This document shows, in pieces, positions 1-30,020 of a stretch of 32,267 bases of DNA. The notes under the pieces were generated by a model. That model was not told the origin of the DNA and ran no database searches. It worked only from the letters and a program-made list of their open reading frames with translations. Made by a program: the position numbers and the translations under genes. Location of the stretch: IMG/VR virus record IMGVR_UViG_3300039918_000021, positions 1-32,267 of that record, one strand, 5' to 3'. The DNA is from a virus. Its lineage: Duplodnaviria > Caudoviricetes. Within the stretch, counting starts at the first letter, position 1. Each line of letters opens with the position of its first letter.

Positions 1-1465
1 GTGTTGCGCGTGCAGCGATTCCTGTCGGCGCGATGCGCCGATATGCCGGCGTGGGGTTGGCACTGGCGAGCTTTTCGCCTTCGAACAATTGGACCCGCAA
101 CGCAGGCGGCAGCAAAATGGCCTGTCGTAGCGCAAAGTCATGTTTCGATACTTCATTCGCCGCGATCATTGCCGCATCACCCGGCAACTTCGCCAACATT
201 CCGGCAACCTGCGCGCGCGCCGCCGGACCGCCAGATGCGAACCCGGCGAGCTCGGCAGCTTGGTCATGCCCGAGAATACGCCGCGTCCCGTTGTGCCCCT
301 GCGCCCAGACATTGGACTGCTGCACGCGCGCGGTGACCGCTGCAGGATCATCGAAATTAAGCGGCGGGAATTCCGGTTCAGCCGTCCGCAGCTGTTCGCG
401 TAATTTGAGCAATTGCGTGTGGCGCGCCACAAGGTCCGGGCTCGCCTGCCAATCCTTATGTCCTTCAATCTGGGCGATGCGCGTCGTGACTTGCGCAGGC
501 GCGGTCGCGCCATAGACACGGCTCTCCTCTGATGCCGCCGCAGCCGCATCCAGTTCCGCGGCGCGACTGGTATCGCCCCGCGCCTTCGCGATCTTCGCCA
601 TATCGCGCAGGGAGCCCGGATCGACTGCAACACCGCGACCGACATCGCCGAGTGCTGTGGTCTCGAATTCCTTTTGCTGCTGAACCGCGAGTACGGCCTG
701 ATGCTCAGCCAGCGCATCGAGGCGTCGGACTTCAACCTGCGCGCCGTCGCGCAGGCGGTCGATTTGCTGGCCATCCAGCACGTCGTTGAAGTGGCCACTG
801 TCGAGCGCCACCACCAACGCCTTCGGATTGGTATCCTGTAGTCGCTGGCCTGCCGCCATCGCAAGTTGTGCGTGCAGTTCGCGCCGCACCGGCTCCCGAT
901 ATTCACCGATCCCTTGCTGACTGTCGACCAGCCCATCGATCGCCTTGGTCGCCGTGACGTAAGCATCAGGATCGGCGCTGGTGCGGACGAACGCCGACCA
1001 GCGGTTGCCCGTTTCACGGATGTTGCCGACGCTTTCCTTGGCCGCTGTCGCTACCTGCCACGCATCCTCATTTCCAACAAAGGAGGCGCGCTGTTCCTGA
1101 ATTTGGGCTTCGATCGATCGACGCACGCGAGTGTCGGTGATGCCCGCAGTAATATCCTGCGTGGCGGCATCGAAACTGTCCGCCATCGCCTGCGCATGGC
1201 CCGCAGCCAGCGGCGCGGCGTTCGCGCGCGCGGCATTGCGCTGTTCGTCAAGTGCCAGCCGCACGCGCGCAAGGTTGGATGCCGCCGTCGTCGCCTGCTC
1301 ATCGGCACGGAGTTGGCGGTCGATCTTTTTCCCTTGCTCCAGCGCGCCGCCAAGCTGCCCAATGCCCTGGCCAACGCCCGCGCCGAAATCCTGCGGCTGC
1401 GCCAAGGGGATGCCAGCCGTATTGCCCGGCACGATCTGTGGTTGATAGATTTGTTCCTGCGGCAT
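1..1465 (-). CDS. Large internal virion (ejection) protein, 3' end runs off window (>488 aa)
   Basis: Hand translation from ATG at 1465 (MPQEQIYQPQIVPGNTAGIPLAQPQDFGAGVGQGIGQLGGALEQ...) is stop-free to base 1. Ala/Gln-rich and helical; position after the gp14-like gene matches podovirus ejection proteins. Absent from the ORF track, presumably because it has no stop in the window. Confidence 0.8.
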   Translation of the reverse strand, partial: MPQEQIYQPQIVPGNTAGIPLAQPQDFGAGVGQGIGQLGGALEQGKKIDRQLRADEQATTAASNLARVRLALDEQRNAARANAAPLAAGHAQAMADSFDAATQDITAGITDTRVRRSIEAQIQEQRASFVGNEDAWQVATAAKESVGNIRETGNRWSAFVRTSADPDAYVTATKAIDGLVDSQQGIGEYREPVRRELHAQLAMAAGQRLQDTNPKALVVALDSGHFNDVLDGQQIDRLRDGAQVEVRRLDALAEHQAVLAVQQQKEFETTALGDVGRGVAVDPGSLRDMAKIAKARGDTSRAAELDAAAAASEESRVYGATAPAQVTTRIAQIEGHKDWQASPDLVARHTQLLKLREQLRTAEPEFPPLNFDDPAAVTARVQQSNVWAQGHNGTRRILGHDQAAELAGFASGGPAARAQVAGMLAKLPGDAAMIAANEVSKHDFALRQAILLPPALRVQLFEGEKLASANPTPAYRRIAPTGIAARAT

Positions 1466-1468
1466 CAG
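1450..1468. repeat. 19-bp direct repeat, left copy (TTTGTTCCTGCGGCATCAG)
   Basis: Identical to 3603-3621; encodes a TGATG stop/start junction and the first codons MPQEQ on the minus strand. Confidence 0.9.
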
Positions 1469-1579
1469 GACCGACCATCGCGTGCAGGAACGGGATGGCG
1501 CGCGGCGCTGACCACAAGGTCGATCTTAGCTGGGATGCAGAGCGCTAAAGACACGGCTGACCAATCGAAACGGGGTTGA

Positions 1580-1687
1580 CCGATTTCGAAGGGCTAGGGG
1601 GCACACAGGCCCGGCCGCTCTATCGTTTAACGCCCGCGATCGGCGATGCAGTCCAGCATGGGGGTCGGGGCGTATCGAGGCTAGGCC
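1580..1687 (-). ncRNA. Putative structured cis-regulatory leader RNA, copy 1 (upstream of internal virion gene)
   Basis: Matches 9280-9385 with 7 substitutions and 2 extra nt (first 67 nt 66/67 identical); non-coding; stems include a compensatory C-G to U-A change. Confidence 0.6.
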
Positions 1688-1703
1688 GACGCTTGTCGAT
1701 CCC

Positions 1704-1731: not shown

Positions 1732-1962
1732 TCACTGGTCCTCATCGTTGACGGCACGGCCATGTTTGGGCCACCCGTTCGGGATCGCATCCCGCGCGGC
1801 GCTGAACACCAGGTCGAGCAGGTTGGCGAGCGGCTCCGCATCGATCGTCGTGTTGTGGGCCTGCCCCGAGATGAGGTGCTGCAGGCAGACCATCGCGCCG
1901 ACGGCGACATTGGCCTTGTCCTCCTGGTCGCGAGAGGACCGGATGTCGCTGAACGCGCTCAT
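1732..1962 (-). CDS. Hypothetical protein (76 aa) coupled to antirepressor
   Basis: ATGA overlap with the Bro-N stop; plausible helical protein. Confidence 0.7.
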   Translation of the reverse strand: MSAFSDIRSSRDQEDKANVAVGAMVCLQHLISGQAHNTTIDAEPLANLLDLVFSAARDAIPNGWPKHGRAVNDEDQ

Positions 1963-2687
1963 TTCGCACCGGCCGGGGCCGCATCGGGCCGGAACCAGAG
2001 GTTGACCTTCACGCCATCGCGCTTGCTCTCGTGCCGCACCCAGCCGAACAGGCGCAGCAGTGCGGAGATGCGCGTCGTCGTCATCCGGTCGATATCGGTC
2101 AGGCCGATGCCGCGTGCCGCCCAGACGGCAGTCGTCTCGGTCTTATCCTCCAGCCATGCCTTGAGCGGCTCAGCAAGATTGTCGCCACTCAACACTGGCA
2201 AGCTGTCGACGATCGGCGCGGGTAGGCCCAGTTGTACCCAGATGCTACGGGCCTCCGCATTCCCGAACAGACGCATCGCGGTGCGCACCGCATTCACGCC
2301 GATTTGGATGTTGGTAAAGTTGATGTCATCGGGAAGCGTCGGGGGCGGTTCGTAGCCCGGCAGCTCATATTTTCCAGTTTTGCGGATTGACGGAAGCACT
2401 TCGGCGGTAACCCACTTGCGGAAGCGTCGCCCTTCCGGCTTGCGGCTGCTCATCACCAGGCCGTACATACCACTCTCAGATACGGCGTTGAGTTCCTGCG
2501 CTCCGCCAAGGGTATCACTTAAAATGACCCCCTTTTCGTCCTCGTCCAACCGACTTAGCGCCTGACTGGTGTTGGACAGCCCGAGGACGCCACAAATATC
2601 CTTTGCGATGAACCATGGTTCGCCGGCAACCATTACGACCCGGATCGCAACTTCTTCAAAATAATAACATGTGAGCGCATTGGTCAT
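1959..2687 (-). CDS. Bro-N domain antirepressor-like protein with C-terminal winged-helix-like domain (242 aa)
   Basis: Bro-N motifs IRVVMVAGEPWFIAKDICGVLG, VSESGMYGLVMSSRKPEGRRFRKWVTAEVLPSIRKTGKY; GGAGG RBS before ATG 2687. Confidence 0.9.
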   Translation of the reverse strand: MTNALTCYYFEEVAIRVVMVAGEPWFIAKDICGVLGLSNTSQALSRLDEDEKGVILSDTLGGAQELNAVSESGMYGLVMSSRKPEGRRFRKWVTAEVLPSIRKTGKYELPGYEPPPTLPDDINFTNIQIGVNAVRTAMRLFGNAEARSIWVQLGLPAPIVDSLPVLSGDNLAEPLKAWLEDKTETTAVWAARGIGLTDIDRMTTTRISALLRLFGWVRHESKRDGVKVNLWFRPDAAPAGAK

Positions 2688-2696
2688 GGACGACCT

Positions 2697-2729
2697 CCTG
2701 TAGAGTTGTCGTCCGAACACCCACGCCAA
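2697..2729 (-). promoter_or_regulatory. Downstream C4 target pair (UUGGCGU and CUACAGG overlapping the antirepressor RBS)
   Basis: Exactly complementary to the ACGCCAA and CCUGUAG segments of the C4-like RNA; CTACAGG overlaps GGAGG. Confidence 0.8.
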
Positions 2730-2733
2730 TGGG

Positions 2734-2808
2734 TGGCCGGACGTGCCGAGGTTGGCGTACCGGCTACAGGCCCGGCGCACCCGAAAGTGCCCTCAACACG
2801 CCCGACCA
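2734..2808 (-). ncRNA. C4-type antisense RNA (P1/P7 immI-like)
   Basis: UGGUCGGGCGUG...CACGUCCGGCCA closing stem, GCAC-UUUCGG-GUGC hairpin, and unpaired CCUGUAG and ACGCCAA with complementary targets both upstream and downstream; lies directly before an antirepressor. Confidence 0.85.
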
Positions 2809-2809
2809 T

Positions 2810-2844
2810 AGAAAACCCGCGCACAGACGGGCATCTGGCGCGGG
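2810..2844 (-). terminator. Intrinsic terminator/attenuator hairpin in the C4 leader
   Basis: CCCGCGC-CAGA...TCTG-T-GCGCGGG followed by TTTTCT on the minus strand. Confidence 0.6.
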
Positions 2845-2849
2845 ACGCG

Positions 2850-2896
2850 CCTGTAGTTTTAGGAACGCCAATTCCTTGGCTGGGATTTACCAGCCG
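2850..2896 (-). promoter_or_regulatory. Upstream C4 target region (c4-a1b1-like)
   Basis: GGCTGG-TAAATC-CCAGCC hairpin, then AGGAA-TTGGCG-TTCCT hairpin exposing UUGGCG (2865-2871) and CTACAGG (2850-2856). Confidence 0.7.
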
Positions 2897-2902
2897 AGCG
2901 CT

Positions 2903-2931
2903 GCTATAAGTGAGCGCGACTCGACAATCAA
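2903..2931 (-). promoter_or_regulatory. Sigma70 promoter for the C4/antirepressor operon
   Basis: TTGATT-N17-TATAGC on the minus strand. Confidence 0.65.
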
Positions 2932-2944
2932 GGGGGGGGGTAAG

Positions 2945-9251: not shown

Positions 9252-9279
9252 GGGATGGCCCTCGCGAAAAAGGTTTGAT

Positions 9280-9385
9280 CCGATTTCGAAGGGCTAGGGG
9301 GCACGCAGGCCCGGCCGCTCTATCGTTTAACGCCCGCGATCGGCGACGCCATCCAGCGTGGGGCCCGGGGCGACGAGGCTAGGCC
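9280..9385 (-). ncRNA. Putative structured cis-regulatory leader RNA, copy 2 (capsid 5' UTR)
   Basis: Repeat of 1580-1687; its 3' GCCCU can pair with AGGGC overlapping the capsid RBS (9258-9263). Confidence 0.65.
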
Positions 9386-9435
9386 AGGACTTAGCCGGGG
9401 GATTGGGAGCGGCTCCCCCGAGGCCGATCGTGAAA

Positions 9436-9461
9436 TCTCACGCCGCGACTCGCGCGTCAAG
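9436..9461 (-). promoter_or_regulatory. Putative late promoter motif CTTGACG-N12-CGTGAGA, copy 2
   Basis: Shared with 1704-1729; lies just after the scaffold stop. Confidence 0.55.
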
Positions 9462-9479: not shown

Positions 9480-10433
9480 TTACAATTGTTGTTCCGCGCG
9501 CGCCTTGCCAGCCGCCGCTGCCGCGTTGAGCCGGTCCCACCGCGTCCGTTCGGCCGATCCGGGCACCATCACGCGTTTCTGGAATTCGGGATCGGCCTTC
9601 AACTTGTCGATCTCGGCCTGTGCTTCGACCCCCGTTACGCCGAAGCGCCCCTTGCCGCCGGTGATAATCGTATCTTCGGCCATGCCTGCGCCGAGTTTGG
9701 CAAGGATGGTCAACGCGCGATCGGCACCCAGGCCAGCGCGCAGGCCCGCCATGTCCTGCTTGGAGAAGCCAAGCGCACGCGCCGCGCTGTCAACATGGGC
9801 GAGCTGCTCGTCTTTCTTCGCGCCCTGTTGTTTCACCCATTCCAGTGCCAGATTGTCTTGCTTCGCGCTCTCGGCCGCCGCCTCATCCATCTGTAATTTG
9901 ATGAAATCGCCCACCAGCCCCTCAAACGCTTCCTTTGGGGCACCGTGCTTGAGCGCGCTCTCGCGCAGCGAGTTGATCAAAGGCTCGTTGAGCGGCACGC
10001 CTTCGGGTGCCTTGATCTCATAGCCGTCAACCTTGTCGGGCACGCCGATCGCGGCCTTGAAGGCGGCGATATCCTCCGGCTTCGCATCTTCGCCCGGCAC
10101 CTTGATCCGGCCGTTTTCGCGCAAGGCCCGCTCGGTATCGCGCGCGATCTTGGTCAGGCCGTCAAGATCCTTCACGCCCTTGGCCGCCAGCCAGTCACGG
10201 TTCGAGCTGGTCTCGCCATCCTTCGTCTCGGCCGATACCTTTTCGAACCAGTCGGGAACCGCAGCGCTTCCATCGGCCACGCCGCCCTCAACGGCAGGTG
10301 CCCCCGGCTGTGCGCCGCCGCTCTCTGCCGCGCCAGGCGCACCACCACCAGTCACTCCCGCACTTCCGATCAAATCCATCGCGCCGCCGCCGGTTGCGCC
10401 GCCATCTGCCCCGCTCTCGCCATCAATTGCCAT
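9480..10433 (-). CDS. Capsid scaffolding/assembly protein
   Basis: Gly/Ala-rich N-terminus, KVPGEDA...GVPDKVDGYEI, helical C-terminus; lies between the Bbp19-like and capsid genes. Confidence 0.8.
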   Translation of the reverse strand: MAIDGESGADGGATGGGAMDLIGSAGVTGGGAPGAAESGGAQPGAPAVEGGVADGSAAVPDWFEKVSAETKDGETSSNRDWLAAKGVKDLDGLTKIARDTERALRENGRIKVPGEDAKPEDIAAFKAAIGVPDKVDGYEIKAPEGVPLNEPLINSLRESALKHGAPKEAFEGLVGDFIKLQMDEAAAESAKQDNLALEWVKQQGAKKDEQLAHVDSAARALGFSKQDMAGLRAGLGADRALTILAKLGAGMAEDTIITGGKGRFGVTGVEAQAEIDKLKADPEFQKRVMVPGSAERTRWDRLNAAAAAGKARAEQQL

Positions 10434-10755
10434 CGTCGATCTCCATGAGTTTCTGGACTGCCGCCTCGTCCAGGTTGAGGTAGGTTGTGATCCGGTCGAA
10501 CACCTCGCGTCGCCCAATCCGCCGCGCCATCACCAGCGGATCCTGCGAAAACAGCAGCCGGCGATTGTTGGGATGCGCGAAGCAAAAGTCGCGCAGGTCG
10601 GCGAGCACGCGCTGCGCCGACACGCGCAGGCGCTCCTCGTCGGTCAGGAACAGCCGACGCCACACCGTCACCGGCGTCTGCCACCCCGCGAACAGATCCT
10701 TGAAGCTGCGCGACACGCGCACCGCATGGATCCGGCGTTCGTTCTTGCTGATCAT
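10423..10755 (-). CDS. Bbp19-like phage protein
   Basis: QRVLADLRDFC ... DPLVMARRIGRREVFDRITTYL motif typical of the gene following podovirus portals. Confidence 0.8.
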   Translation of the reverse strand: MISKNERRIHAVRVSRSFKDLFAGWQTPVTVWRRLFLTDEERLRVSAQRVLADLRDFCFAHPNNRRLLFSQDPLVMARRIGRREVFDRITTYLNLDEAAVQKLMEIDDGN

Positions 10756-16087: not shown

Positions 16088-16579
16088 TGCCGCTCAACCT
16101 TGGCCGTTCGCCCCCTTTCGACCGGTCGGCATCAATCCCGTAAAACGGAAGGTCGATCAAAATCCGGAATATCGCGTGCGCCAACATGCGAGCATCAGGG
16201 CGCGCGGCCGTTGGGGGCCCTACCCCCTCGGGCTGGGCACTCAGGCCCCCCCGTCCGATCGGCCCGCCTGCGCCGCCCAGCGTGCCGCATGGGCTCAACC
16301 TAGAAAGCTTATGACCATCCCCGGAAAGCTCTGATTTTACAGCATGTTGCGCGCCGCATTCCGACACCGGCATTCCGACATGCCCGATCCGCCCCCCGCA
16401 AACCCGCAGAAATCCGCCGTTTCCGCCCGCGCGACCCAGCCGCGCCAGGCCACCCCGATCGCAGGCCAGCCGGGCCAGATCCACCGCGCACCAAGCCCAA
16501 AAGTTTTGCGGCGCAGCCCCTCCGTAACACTGTGGATCGGGCGTTTCGGCGACGATGCGACCGGGCAGCGCATATCCAC

Positions 16580-25142: not shown

Positions 25143-25381
25143 TCGACCATGCCAAAGTGGCGCGCGGCCTGTCGCGCGGCCAGAAATCAACCGTGCTGCA
25201 TATGGATGCCGAGTTTCGCATGCTCGGCTGCAGCGAAGCGACGGCGATCCGCCTGAGCAAGCCTTACGGCCTCCGCCCAGCCCTCACCACCAGCCGGAAA
25301 AGTGAAGCTGGCATCCTGCTGTTCGCGCTGAATGCCGACGGCCTGGCTGTCCAAAAGCATTTGACGGGGCAAGTGGCATGA
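25139..25381 (+). CDS. Hypothetical protein (80 aa)
   Basis: ATGA-coupled at both ends. Confidence 0.65.
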   Translation: MIDHAKVARGLSRGQKSTVLHMDAEFRMLGCSEATAIRLSKPYGLRPALTTSRKSEAGILLFALNADGLAVQKHLTGQVA

Positions 25382-26475
25382 CCCCGCCCGAAGCCGCGCC
25401 GATGCGCGAGGATGTGACGCAACTTCTACCGTGCCCCCGGTGCGGTAACAGGGCGTTTTTAACGATCAATTTTGAGGTTTGGTGCCGCACCGATAGGTGC
25501 CTTAAACTTCCTCCACGCGCGTCCCGTGCCGAGGCAGCCGATGCATGGAATACGCGTTCCTACACCGCCCGCCCCGACGCCGGGGATGAGGTCGAGCGGG
25601 TGTGCCGTGTTCTAGCCAAGGCGGATGGCCTCGATTGGGACGAGGTGTGCGCTTACGAAAAGGGCACCGCAGAGGAAATCGGCGACGCGAGCTGCAACAG
25701 CAGCACGTGCGTGGCAGCACATTACGAAGACCATGATCCGGATGTTGCAAGGGGCCGCTATCGCAAGCAGGCCGAGGCGATTGCCGCGCACTATTCCGCC
25801 GCCATGCGCGAAGGGGTGGACCGGGTGGCGTATCCCGATATCGGCCCTGATCCGATGAAGGGCGATCGTTCTGACCGTTTCGAAGAGGCTATAGCGCGGG
25901 TGCGCGAGGATGTGACGCAGGCTGATCGTGATCTTGCTGAGGCGATCGTTTCGCATACCCGAGGATATGCTGTGCGCCTCCCCAACGACGGCCATACCGC
26001 TATTCAGCTTGCTGCGCGTTTTCGCCTCGCCCACACCGCCCACCCCGATGCCGGGGATGCCGGTCGGTATCACTTCACCGACGAAAACCCGTTCGAAGTC
26101 CGCACTGTTGAGGGAACGAAGAAACTAGGGCGTGGGTGGTTGGCAATCACTGAAGCCGAGTACGCAGGTCTTCGCGCCCGCCCCGACGCCGGGGATGAGG
26201 TCGAGCGGGTGGCGAGGGCGATCTCGCATGTCGTCAATCCGTGGGATCACGATGGCGACCAATGGGAAGGCTACGAAGACGAAGCACGCGCCGCACTAGC
26301 CGCCATGCGCGAGGGGGTGGACCGGGGGATGGTGGAGGAAGTGCCTGCCGTACCTGAATGGCTGGCGAAGGTGCTTGCAGAGAATGTGGCCCGTTTCGAC
26401 GCTCTACCCCTAGCAATCAAGAATGCCCGGTTCTCGTATGTCGCCGCCGCCGCCCTCTCGCGCAAGGGAGGGTGA
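25378..26475 (+). CDS. Lar (restriction alleviation)-like N-terminus fused to modular repeat region (365 aa)
   Basis: LLPCPRCG...C...C...AEAADAWNTR; internal repeats ARPDAGDEVERV, AAMREGVDR, REDVTQ. Confidence 0.75.
   Translation: MTPPEAAPMREDVTQLLPCPRCGNRAFLTINFEVWCRTDRCLKLPPRASRAEAADAWNTRSYTARPDAGDEVERVCRVLAKADGLDWDEVCAYEKGTAEEIGDASCNSSTCVAAHYEDHDPDVARGRYRKQAEAIAAHYSAAMREGVDRVAYPDIGPDPMKGDRSDRFEEAIARVREDVTQADRDLAEAIVSHTRGYAVRLPNDGHTAIQLAARFRLAHTAHPDAGDAGRYHFTDENPFEVRTVEGTKKLGRGWLAITEAEYAGLRARPDAGDEVERVARAISHVVNPWDHDGDQWEGYEDEARAALAAMREGVDRGMVEEVPAVPEWLAKVLAENVARFDALPLAIKNARFSYVAAAALSRKGG
25403..26326 (+). repeat. Three families of intragenic direct repeats
   Basis: 19 bp (25403, 25901); 37 bp identical (25566, 26175; partial third at 26033); 28 bp with 1 mismatch (25798, 26299). 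Confidence 0.85.
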
Positions 26476-28497: not shown

Positions 28498-29799
28498 ATG
28501 AAAATCTCCGTTCCCGGTCTGGTCGCCAAGAAAACCGCCACGGGCACGCGCTATTATTGGACGCCATCGCCCACGCTCAGCAAGGCGGGATGGAAGAGCC
28601 AGGCGCTTGGCCGCGACATCGAGGCCGCGATCGCCGCAGCGAAGAAGCGCAACGAGGAAGTCGCCAACTGGCGCACCGGCGGTGCCAAACCGCGCGCCAT
28701 CGCCAAGTTCGTCGCGCGCGCCACCGTCGATCATGTCATCGCCCAGTATAAGGCCGATGGCTATCCGCGCGTGAAGAAGGGCGGCCGCTTTGGCGATGAC
28801 CGGTTCATCGGCGAAAACACCCGCATCGAATATGACAGCAAGTTGAAGGCGATTTCCGCCTGGGCAGGATCGGAGCCGATCGCGGCGATCACGCCAGACA
28901 ATGTCGCGGTGTTCCGCGATGCGCTGCTCGTCCCCAAAAAGGGTGTCGTTCGGCTCACTACGGCACATGGCACGCTGCGCGTGCTGCGAACGCTGTGCGC
29001 CTATGCCAAGAGCAAGAAATGGATCGAGACCAACCCGGCGCTTGATTTCGATTTGCCCGCTCCGCCACCGCGCCAGCAGGTGGCAAGTCCCGAGGCGCGT
29101 GCGGCCTTGCTCGCCGCTGCAGACGATGCCGGGGAGCCGAATATGGCGCTGGCCATGCTGTTGGGCTGGAAGATCGGCCAACGCGAAGGCGATTTGCTGC
29201 GCACGCTCCAGACGCAATATGTCGAAATCCCGTCCTACAAGCTCGATGCGGAGGTATTTGCCTCTTTGGCTGCCATGGCCCCCGACGGGCGCGTCATGGG
29301 CATTCGCCTGCGCCAGGGAAAGACGAGGGTCTGGATCGAGGTGCCCGTGGTCGCTGATGAGCGCACGCGCATCGAGGCCGCGATCGAGCGGGCGCGTGCG
29401 GTCGGCATTGCGACGCTCCTGTATGACGAGCGCGACAATAAGACGTGGACCAGCGGCGACAATAAGGAGCGCCGCAGCCGGGCGATGTATTTCCAGCGTC
29501 GCTTCGCCGAACTCCGCCAGAGCGCAGCGGACAAGGCAAAGCGCGACGGCCTTGCCGAATTGTCCGCCGATTTGCTGGATCTGCAATTCCGCGATTTCCG
29601 CCGCACCTGTGTCGTCGTGCTTGGAGAGCTGGGCTTGGCCGATCAACTGATCGCCGCGATCACCGGCCACAGTCTCGACGAAACGAAGCGCATTCTGGAG
29701 GTGTACATGCCGCGCACCACCGGCATGGCCGCGCGCGCGATCATGATGAGCGCCGAACGCGACGCGCGCAATGCCAAGCGCAACGGGGCGAGTGCGTGA
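28498..29799 (+). CDS. int: Tyrosine recombinase / phage integrase
   Basis: GQREGDL, RQGKT, FRDFRRT, ITGHS and catalytic Tyr in ILEVY; adjacent to a tRNA. Confidence 0.93.
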   Translation: MKISVPGLVAKKTATGTRYYWTPSPTLSKAGWKSQALGRDIEAAIAAAKKRNEEVANWRTGGAKPRAIAKFVARATVDHVIAQYKADGYPRVKKGGRFGDDRFIGENTRIEYDSKLKAISAWAGSEPIAAITPDNVAVFRDALLVPKKGVVRLTTAHGTLRVLRTLCAYAKSKKWIETNPALDFDLPAPPPRQQVASPEARAALLAAADDAGEPNMALAMLLGWKIGQREGDLLRTLQTQYVEIPSYKLDAEVFASLAAMAPDGRVMGIRLRQGKTRVWIEVPVVADERTRIEAAIERARAVGIATLLYDERDNKTWTSGDNKERRSRAMYFQRRFAELRQSAADKAKRDGLAELSADLLDLQFRDFRRTCVVVLGELGLADQLIAAITGHSLDETKRILEVYMPRTTGMAARAIMMSAERDARNAKRNGASA

Positions 29800-29820
29800 C
29801 CAGCACCCCCAGCCGCGCGG

Positions 29821-29850
29821 CTTGCGTCAACGCCATGTGCACGCTATCGC
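29821..29850 (+). promoter_or_regulatory. Sigma70-like promoter upstream of tRNA-Gly
   Basis: CTTGCGT-N17-TATCGC, resembling the alphaproteobacterial CTTGAC-N17-CTATAT consensus. Confidence 0.5.
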
Positions 29851-29867
29851 AAACGCGCATCGACGCG

Positions 29868-29937
29868 GATTGTCGGAATTCCGACAATCGGAATGTCGGA
29901 ACGCAGTCTGACGAGACGCCACAGAATGGCGGAATTG
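29868..29937. repeat. 22-bp perfect palindrome and TCGGAA repeats (candidate integrase arm sites)
   Basis: GATTGTCGGAATTCCGACAATC (29868-29889), further TCGGAA at 29888 and 29896, GCGGAAT near 29929. Confidence 0.6.
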
Positions 29938-29946
29938 CTGGGCTTA

Positions 29947-30020
29947 GCGGGTATAGTACAATGGTAGTACAGCAGCCTTCCAAGCTGAATACACGGGTTC
30001 GATTCCCGTTACCCGCTCCA
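29947..30020 (+). tRNA. tRNA-Gly(TCC), probable integration target
   Basis: GCGGGTA/TACCCGC acceptor stem, CT-TCC-AA anticodon loop, GGTTCGATTCC T arm, encoded CCA; 74 nt. Confidence 0.97.

Follow-up and report, generated by a model that had tools for sequence, protein, structure and literature searches.

A pseudoknotted leader of phage capsid mRNA as a candidate translational ON-switch read by the predicted scaffolding protein

The balance between scaffold and capsid protein in tailed phages is known mainly from phage P22, whose scaffolding protein reportedly regulates its own synthesis. This autoregulation takes the form of repression, and in the logic of P22 the free scaffold serves as a signal of the state of assembly. 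The put RNA of phage HK022 is a structured, promoter-proximal RNA that occurs in two copies and acts on RNA polymerase; we know of no pseudoknot, SD helix or phage-protein partner in put. A small pseudoknot is also found in the raiA motif, which may resemble that of the leader described below. The raiA motif RNA is described as a larger, non-coding RNA of Bacillota and Actinomycetota that holds pseudoknots (PMC10861870). A study of P22 implicates the N-terminus of the scaffold in translational control (bioRxiv 10.1101/2022.12.13.520362); an earlier reference on the autoregulation is Wyckoff and Casjens (1985). In phage Mu, the Com protein binds the mom mRNA beside a helix in which the signals for translation start are concealed, and switches translation on (PMC6483171). 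Structured RNAs have also been predicted before phage capsid genes by Fremin et al. (2023), including DNAVirus_3698 and DNAVirus_865 before N4-type capsids (PMC10690425).

In this paper, we describe a pseudoknotted leader of a capsid mRNA that probably works, as comparative analysis and modelling suggest, as a translational ON-switch read by the predicted scaffolding protein. With Com/mom the proposed system would share a phage protein, a start-hiding helix and the activation of translation; Com, a zinc-finger protein dedicated to regulation, recognises a hairpin loop, whereas the regulator here would be a structural assembly chaperone, recognising two matching bulges on either side of a pseudoknot, with a capsid message as its target. 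With P22 it may share the use of the N-terminus of a podovirus scaffold as the regulatory part; the P22 scaffold acts on its own gene, whereas here it would be the capsid message downstream that is targeted, with activation as the predicted outcome, so that the scaffold/capsid balance would have a second solution with the opposite lever. The likeness to put lies in a promoter-proximal structured RNA in two copies, from which put differs in its action on the polymerase. The raiA motif differs in its size, its non-coding nature and its host groups, and the leader has no Rfam match. The two candidates of Fremin et al., which are 85 and 62 nt long, belong to Haliea and Bacteroidetes hosts and have no partner named in the accessible text, are set apart by these descriptions, and it is possible that the same report holds an unannotated prediction of part of this RNA. 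Our search of the literature, mostly of papers outside subscription, found no description of this RNA or of scaffold-activated capsid translation, and the leader is apparently an undescribed RNA family.

The DNA under study (hereafter the window) is the whole of a 32-kb virus record, 32,267 nt in length, and represents a podovirus-like prophage. Its minus strand encodes a primase, a helicase, a terminase, a T7-like portal, a capsid protein (PF19821) and tail-tube genes, and the named relatives of the capsid come from Sphingomonas and its kin. The features of the locus are compiled in Table 1; the major capsid protein gene is the predicted target of regulation. Among the ORFs of the window that were scanned by profile, none matched a Q- or N-like family, in agreement with the preliminary description of this DNA, to which no such gene had been visible.

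Table 1. Coordinates of the leader, its second copy and neighbouring features in the window
Feature	Position	Strand	Remarks
Variable 5' hairpin P0, optional	9396..9420	-	Missing or replaced in homologues, e.g. L051, L075
Arm 1	9364..9388	-	P1 = 9388-9384 with 9368-9364; compensatory change in 5/5 P1 pairs
Bulge site 1	CCUA 9383-9380, then two G-C pairs	-	Within arm 1
Hairpin P2, usually with GGA-type loop	9346..9359	-	5/5 pairs compensatory
Compact H-type pseudoknot	9322..9345	-	S1 CGCC/GGCG, S2 AUCG/CGAU, A-rich loop 3
Arm 2	9292..9316	-	GGCC 9316-9313, helix P4b 9312-9299; 4/4 P4b pairs compensatory
Bulge site 2	CCUA 9298-9295, GCC 9294-9292	-	Within arm 2
SD-burying helix P5	9258..9294	-	Shares GCC with site 2; SD 9263-9259; predicted fold
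Major capsid protein gene, 310 aa	8319..9251	-	PF19821 E 2e-61, phrog_3437
Scaffolding protein (predicted), 317 aa from MAIDG start	9480..10433	-	Between portal and capsid
Codons of scaffold residues 96-105	10119..10148	-	Predicted recognition helix (T100, R105)
Sigma70-type late promoter (predicted)	9434..9460	-	-35 hexamer 9460-9455, weak -10 near 9439-9434
GANTC (CcrM-type) site inside late promoter	9451-9447	-	Coordinates from window sequence
Second leader copy	1552..1696	-	Both sites, pseudoknot, P5; no clear SD; 127 bits to model R1
-35 of second leader copy	1728-1723	-	Own promoter element
29-codon GUG frame behind copy 2	1465..1554	-	UGA overlaps AUG of next late gene
Inserted cassette before copy 2	1732..2935	-	C4 RNA, antirepressor (Bro-N), 76-aa ORF; missing from L021, L022
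C4 RNA	2813-2729	-	RF01695, 68 bits
Antirepressor (Bro-N) in cassette	1959-2780	-	phrog_130, PF02498

Of 60 related prophage loci, mostly of Sphingomonadales and collected by capsid homology (a few are the same prophage from two collections), 58 have a 5' leader of about 145 nt in front of the capsid gene; this bears out the earlier view of a conserved structured late-gene leader, the fold of which is supported by the covariation described below. The leader is retained down to 36% capsid identity, and the two loci without it have capsids of 31% and 23% identity. A pattern of the pseudoknot core matched 95 viral loci, with a capsid match above 50 bits right behind it in 80; the other 15 include several with short flanks or mis-picked starts, one copy 2 and one leader before a tailspike-like gene. 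Model R1 recovered 48 of 49 whole records, nearly always with one copy each. No host-chromosome repeat was found in the genomes searched: with 20 candidates scored per genome, 150 further genomes of the order yielded one new real match (G025, before a capsid gene) and one chance match, and 150 further genomes of the class yielded no leader match. A second match in G334 (E 0.004) lies inside coding sequence and was treated as chance.

From 5' to 3', the leader is composed of P1 with bulge site 1, hairpin P2, the H-type pseudoknot, a purine linker, arm 2 with site 2, and P5. In a plain MAFFT alignment of 55 leaders, compensatory changes are found in 21 of 28 pairs and 91% of cells pair, compared with 34-45% in slid controls, and none of 500 shuffles reached this covariation; the homologues thus contain the covariation on which the preliminary description had made a function depend. 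In a model-fitted alignment of 73 distinct rows 95% of cells pair, the pairs of P1 being formed in 94.5-98.6% of cells, and P1, P2, P4b and part of S1 also emerge from RNAalifold when it is run on its own. The folding energy of single sequences was no better than that of shuffles (z +1.9 and +0.15) and is uninformative; the evidence for structure is therefore comparative, not thermodynamic, and on this evidence we are all but certain that the leader is a conserved structure folded as drawn. The pseudoknot is its most sequence-conserved part. As read by eye, S1 has compensatory changes in L057, L097, L062 and L083, and S2, which is short and partly broken in several rows, in L057, L068, L079 and L097; loop 3 carries an inserted hairpin in the capsid copy of G325. 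The pair adjoining bulge 2 is C-G in L030, U-A in L113 and G-U in L051 and L169, and the outer helix of site 2 is mostly invariant, with variation in a few rows only.

The leader is duplicated within the window. The direct repeat 9280-9372/1580-1672, with 92% identity over 93 nt, is by far the longest in the window, and when 9280-9385 is aligned with 1580-1687, the two stretches on which the preliminary description had based its claim of a duplication, they differ by eight substitutions and a 2-nt gap, or, if two single-base gaps are placed instead, by the seven substitutions and 2 nt reported there. The compensatory change from ACGC/GCGU to AUGC/GCAU is present between the copies, and this C-G to U-A change sits in hairpin P2; also present, as had been stated, are the two occurrences of CCUAGCC in each copy and the 3' hairpin that in copy 1 covers the capsid SD. 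The lack of a known family was likewise reproduced, since covariance models of Rfam 15 gave no match at E<=1 over either copy, and the element as found in 10 homologous loci gave none at E<=10. The pseudoknot suggested earlier is supported, as is, at the level of predicted folds, the switch, but the fold had been drawn wrongly in detail: both the GCCG/CGGC closing arm and the pairing of the loop with an upstream CGCCC have 0 compensatory changes across 55 homologues, and the 13-pair model as a whole was equalled by 125 of 500 shuffles. In the covarying fold, the loop is paired with the CGCC that directly precedes the arm on its 5' side, and the partner of GGC is the GCC within the second CCUAGCC. 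A self-cleaving ribozyme or a metabolite riboswitch was rejected on the absence of an Rfam match, and sites that switch between phages would be unlike those of a fixed small ligand.

Both arms of the leader are built on one module, in which four bases on one strand lie opposite a lone C, with G-C helices on either side. The two sites are identical at bulge positions 1, 3 and 4 in all 74 leaders compared (one position was read from the sequence at a model gap, and two rows are identical), and position 2, which differs between the sites in 17 of the 74, serves as an internal control. The bulge type switches about 22 times on the capsid tree (this and the other trees were built with FastTree), on which the two sites agree in 12 of 12 and 11 of 11 independent pairs, with no such agreement at position 2; on the leaders' own tree, built with the bulge columns dropped, 20 type changes are still needed. 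Although leaders recombine internally, as the mosaic copy 2 shows, mismatched sites almost never occur, and the comparison points to a single partner that would read both bulges.

When 1,950 columns of nine neighbouring proteins were screened against the bulge bases, a single helix of the scaffold was alone in predicting them. The proteins were the scaffold, the capsid, the portal, the predicted small terminase, a 110-aa basic protein, proteins of 215, 146 and 65 aa, and tail tube A. For bulge position 3, the top nine predictors all belong to the scaffold, and the best leave-one-out accuracies of the scaffold, 0.99 at position 3 and 0.98 at position 1, compare with at most 0.81 and 0.89 for the other proteins, each of which was rejected as the partner (0.72-0.89, no clean column). 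All 39 leaders with U go with N or T at scaffold residue 100, and all 29 with A go with A, L or V there; at residue 105, R accompanies C in 46 of 46 leaders, and H (16) or S (2) accompanies G in 18 of 18. In this alignment two of 70 scaffolds are without the region, and the window is represented by the near-identical copy in L088, the helix of which is identical in the window. The link holds in 10 of 10 and 9 of 9 independent pairs on the capsid tree. Third codon positions of the helix vary freely, and pairing of the scaffold codons with the bulge, mRNA to mRNA, was rejected as the codons are not complementary in both states; the link therefore lies at the protein level. In a held-out set, 36 metagenome matches comprised 23 leaders already seen and 13 new ones; the sites agree in 12 of the 13, and among the 11 that have the helix the rule for residue 100 holds in 10 and that for residue 105 in 9 of 9 C/G cases. 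The exceptions are L261, with bulge U and an alanine, and L272, with mismatched sites and a mixed-looking helix. From this sequence evidence, it is very probable that the scaffold is the binder of the leader.

We infer the protein to be a scaffold; its position and its modelled helical fold would suit a relative of T7 gp9 (PF05396). Its match to PF05396 (T7 capsid-assembly; E 3.6e-4, 21.4 bits) is below the cut-off of 27.1, and the Atlas lead is 0.86. The AlphaFold model is all-helical with a mean pLDDT of 91 and places residues 100 and 105 on one helix, in the first folded helical region. No PDB match to the fold was obtained by sequence, Foldseek or VIA, where the VIA list was taken up by matches to the C-terminal part and so bears little on the N-terminal domain; rows with TAL repeats merely add up several weak stretches, and the structural matches are uncharacterised phage proteins only. 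At E<=0.001 the family counts 14,328 clusters.

One and the same GCC closes site 2 and begins P5, the helix that pairs with the SD. In predicted folds this GCC pairs 3' in 67 of 70 leaders, mostly 4-10 nt before the start, and in a separate folding set the SD pairing wins in 53 of 54 leaders. The computed cost of opening the ribosome site is 12.2 kcal/mol against 7.4 kcal/mol for shuffles (70 leaders), exceeding the leader's own shuffle mean in 68 of 70 and all 30 shuffles in 29. With site 2 formed, the computed cost of opening the SD is 4.9 instead of 10.4 kcal/mol, and the drop exceeds 1 in 68 of 70 leaders; forming site 2 itself costs about 6.6 kcal/mol, to be paid by binding, and any forced pair that removes the three bases from the SD helix also lowers the opening cost. 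Joint changes of the site-2 strand, of its 5' partner and of the SD region are seen in L030 and L113 and support both the site-2 and the P5 pairings. RNAalifold further proposes that the CGA of the pseudoknot pairs with the UCG after site 2; this pairing has no compensatory support, but in the model it would bring the SD opening cost down to 3.7, and it might account for the near invariance of the UCG. The leader thus has, as a switch of the Com/mom type does, a default SD-hiding helix, here computed, and a competing candidate protein site that overlaps it; since site 2 and the SD helix share three bases, binding of the scaffold would open the ribosome site.

In the mechanism that we propose, the GCC of site 2 would pair with the SD when the partner is absent, and capsid translation, as folding predicts, would be off. 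Free scaffold, probably as a dimer or as two copies, would dock its N-terminal helix on the preformed site 1 and would then capture site 2, drawing the GCC off the SD and roughly halving the opening cost of the ribosome site. Capsid would be made only while unassembled scaffold is in excess, so that both head proteins would be coupled; leaky late transcripts would stay silent in the lysogen, and late genes other than the capsid that lie behind inserted cassettes would, through second copies, come under the same control. That the effect would be activation is suggested by the geometry of site 2 and P5 and by assembly logic, by which free scaffold signals a shortage of capsid. We consider it rather likely that the scaffold acts as a sequence-specific translational activator of the capsid and other leader-bearing late genes, and rather likely too, as part of the same reading, that it would do so through a two-residue code, residue 100 for U/A and residue 105 for C/G. 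The translational operator for scaffold and capsid considered in the preliminary description is retained here, except that the data indicate the scaffold acting on the capsid message, not on its own: the two leader copies are the only places in the window that contain the site, with none near the scaffold start or in the scaffold's own leader, where a P22-type target would lie.

The direction of the effect is the point at which another reading, which we hold to be possible although clearly less likely, departs from this one. The scaffold could bind both bulges without releasing the SD, and could repress, stabilise the message or tether capsid translation for hand-off to the procapsid. The residue-base code is silent on direction, and the P22 scaffold is described as an autoregulator. 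Copy 2 retains all sites without a clear SD. It is shared with L033 and L088 and absent from L021 and L022 (96-99% capsid identity), and its 5' half is 80% identical to L056/L031 and its 3' half 97% to copy 1; a near-identical prophage recorded for Sphingomonas sp. Ant H11 has both copies; the 29-codon frame behind it, which encodes the same peptide in L088 with one synonymous change, possibly provides translational coupling and may instead be a remnant of the cassette junction. In G325, an independent duplication lies before a tailspike-like gene, behind an opposite-strand gene; its bulge type is that of the capsid copy and its P5 is fitted to the SD of the tailspike-like gene, and site 2 alone barely opens that SD (12.2 to 11.7). 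Release of the SD is favoured by the fact that site 2 and P5 need the same three bases and that the joint changes in L030 and L113 keep both, and repression of the capsid by free scaffold would be expected to starve assembly; second copies before non-capsid genes speak against hand-off.

It is improbable that the scaffold signal is mere linkage, with the bulges packing on each other in a symmetric RNA fold or binding another phage protein. The scaffold gene does adjoin the leader, the screen covered nine neighbouring proteins, and the scaffold tree needs 17 type changes against 21 on the capsid tree for the same taxa. However, the signal is limited to one helix about 640-670 nt upstream of the gene end, and the scaffold segment between this helix and the leader, with a best accuracy of only 0.82, argues against plain linkage. 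The signal also persists on a scaffold tree built without the helix (8 of 8 and 8 of 8 independent pairs), and the held-out leaders L257 and L267 fit although their nearest scaffolds are of another type.

A put-like antiterminator, which had also been suggested earlier and which would act in cis to modify RNA polymerase along the long late operon, is very unlikely in our view. The leader lies directly behind a predicted promoter, as such an element would: a TWGAC -35 is found 32-117 nt upstream in 68 of 74 leaders, followed within the next 28 nt by GANTC in 48 of the 68, where 0.014 per 28 nt is expected from the strong genome-wide depletion of GANTC (a consensus promoter scan did not list the late promoter of the window among its sites). 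Second copies, moreover, follow inserted cassettes, and the pseudoknot is invariant in sequence, as for a conserved host partner. Yet the leader always abuts a start codon with an SD-pairing helix, its sites co-vary with a phage protein, and restart promoters at the same place in L021 and L022 have no leader; we do not favour the antiterminator, given that the conserved switch is linked to the SD and that the signal for a partner points to the scaffold rather than to RNA polymerase. Least probable is that the leader, or a cut-off piece of it, is a structural RNA comparable to the pRNA of phi29, which would organise the dimers of the scaffold inside the procapsid, for although two symmetric scaffold sites on a rigid core would suit it, no terminator or processing signal closes the leader, P5 runs into the SD, and copies stand before non-head genes.

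If scaffold-activated capsid translation is the correct reading, it suggests how prophages in which no Q- or N-like gene was found could keep their late genes off and time them. As the RNA site, the binding helix and the predicted specificity swaps can all be named, the proposal is testable by a few point changes. Readable codes that link amino acids to bases within a small helical domain are rare, and this one could supply orthogonal translational switches; a code switched so many times would, if true, amount to a natural set of orthogonal protein-RNA switches within a scaffold family of about 14,000 sequence clusters. The matching of repeated RNA sites to protein columns could also be applied to other orphan phage leaders.

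Among the pattern matches a second subtype (type II) was found before distant capsids, in which a larger loop, with the words CCGCA, CCGUAA, CCGCUA or CCGCU, is again repeated twice. Type II leaders (L116, L127, L132, L134, L148, L170 and others) share the pseudoknot, have twin loops of larger size, and go with a related scaffold helix and with distant capsids (70-125 bits); the helix is retained in type II scaffolds and, as read by eye in a few rows, varies with the loop type. Capsid leaders without the pseudoknot were also observed, with GGAUA three times in bulged helices in L084 (3850-4000) and ACAAG twice in bulged helices in L087 (2780-2926), and these repeated-word leaders are perhaps simpler versions of the same control.

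Several further features of the region were observed. The GANTC between the -35 and -10 elements of the late promoters suggests activation of the CcrM-methylation/GcrA type (PMC4647560), and GANTC is also present in the restart promoters behind inserted genes in L021, L022 and L156. The insertion site of the C4/antirepressor cassette (window 2729-2935 and 1959-2780) among the late genes is a hot spot, close relatives having different opposite-strand genes there, and in L022 and L088 a duplicate of the beginning of the downstream gene lies at the edge of the insertion. A short structured-looking motif starting with GGUAAAUCCC or GGUGAAUCCC recurs just behind the restart promoter (window about 2880-2930, L022 about 16100-16150, L156 about 1900-1940), with or without a C4 RNA after it and with no Rfam match in the window. 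The conserved 110-aa protein between portal and scaffold (window 10423-10755) is arginine-rich, has no family match and does not track the bulge type, and its stop overlaps the scaffold start. A Lar-like ORF (25378-26475) contains internal direct repeats at 25559-26326, of which one pair is identical over 37 nt at a distance of 609 nt, in addition to copies of 28-30 nt. Finally, in the region 28498-30017 the integrase directly adjoins a tRNA gene (29947-30017), which is likely the attachment site of the prophage, and is followed by host-like metabolic genes of the aldolase-II, HAD and IF-2B families.
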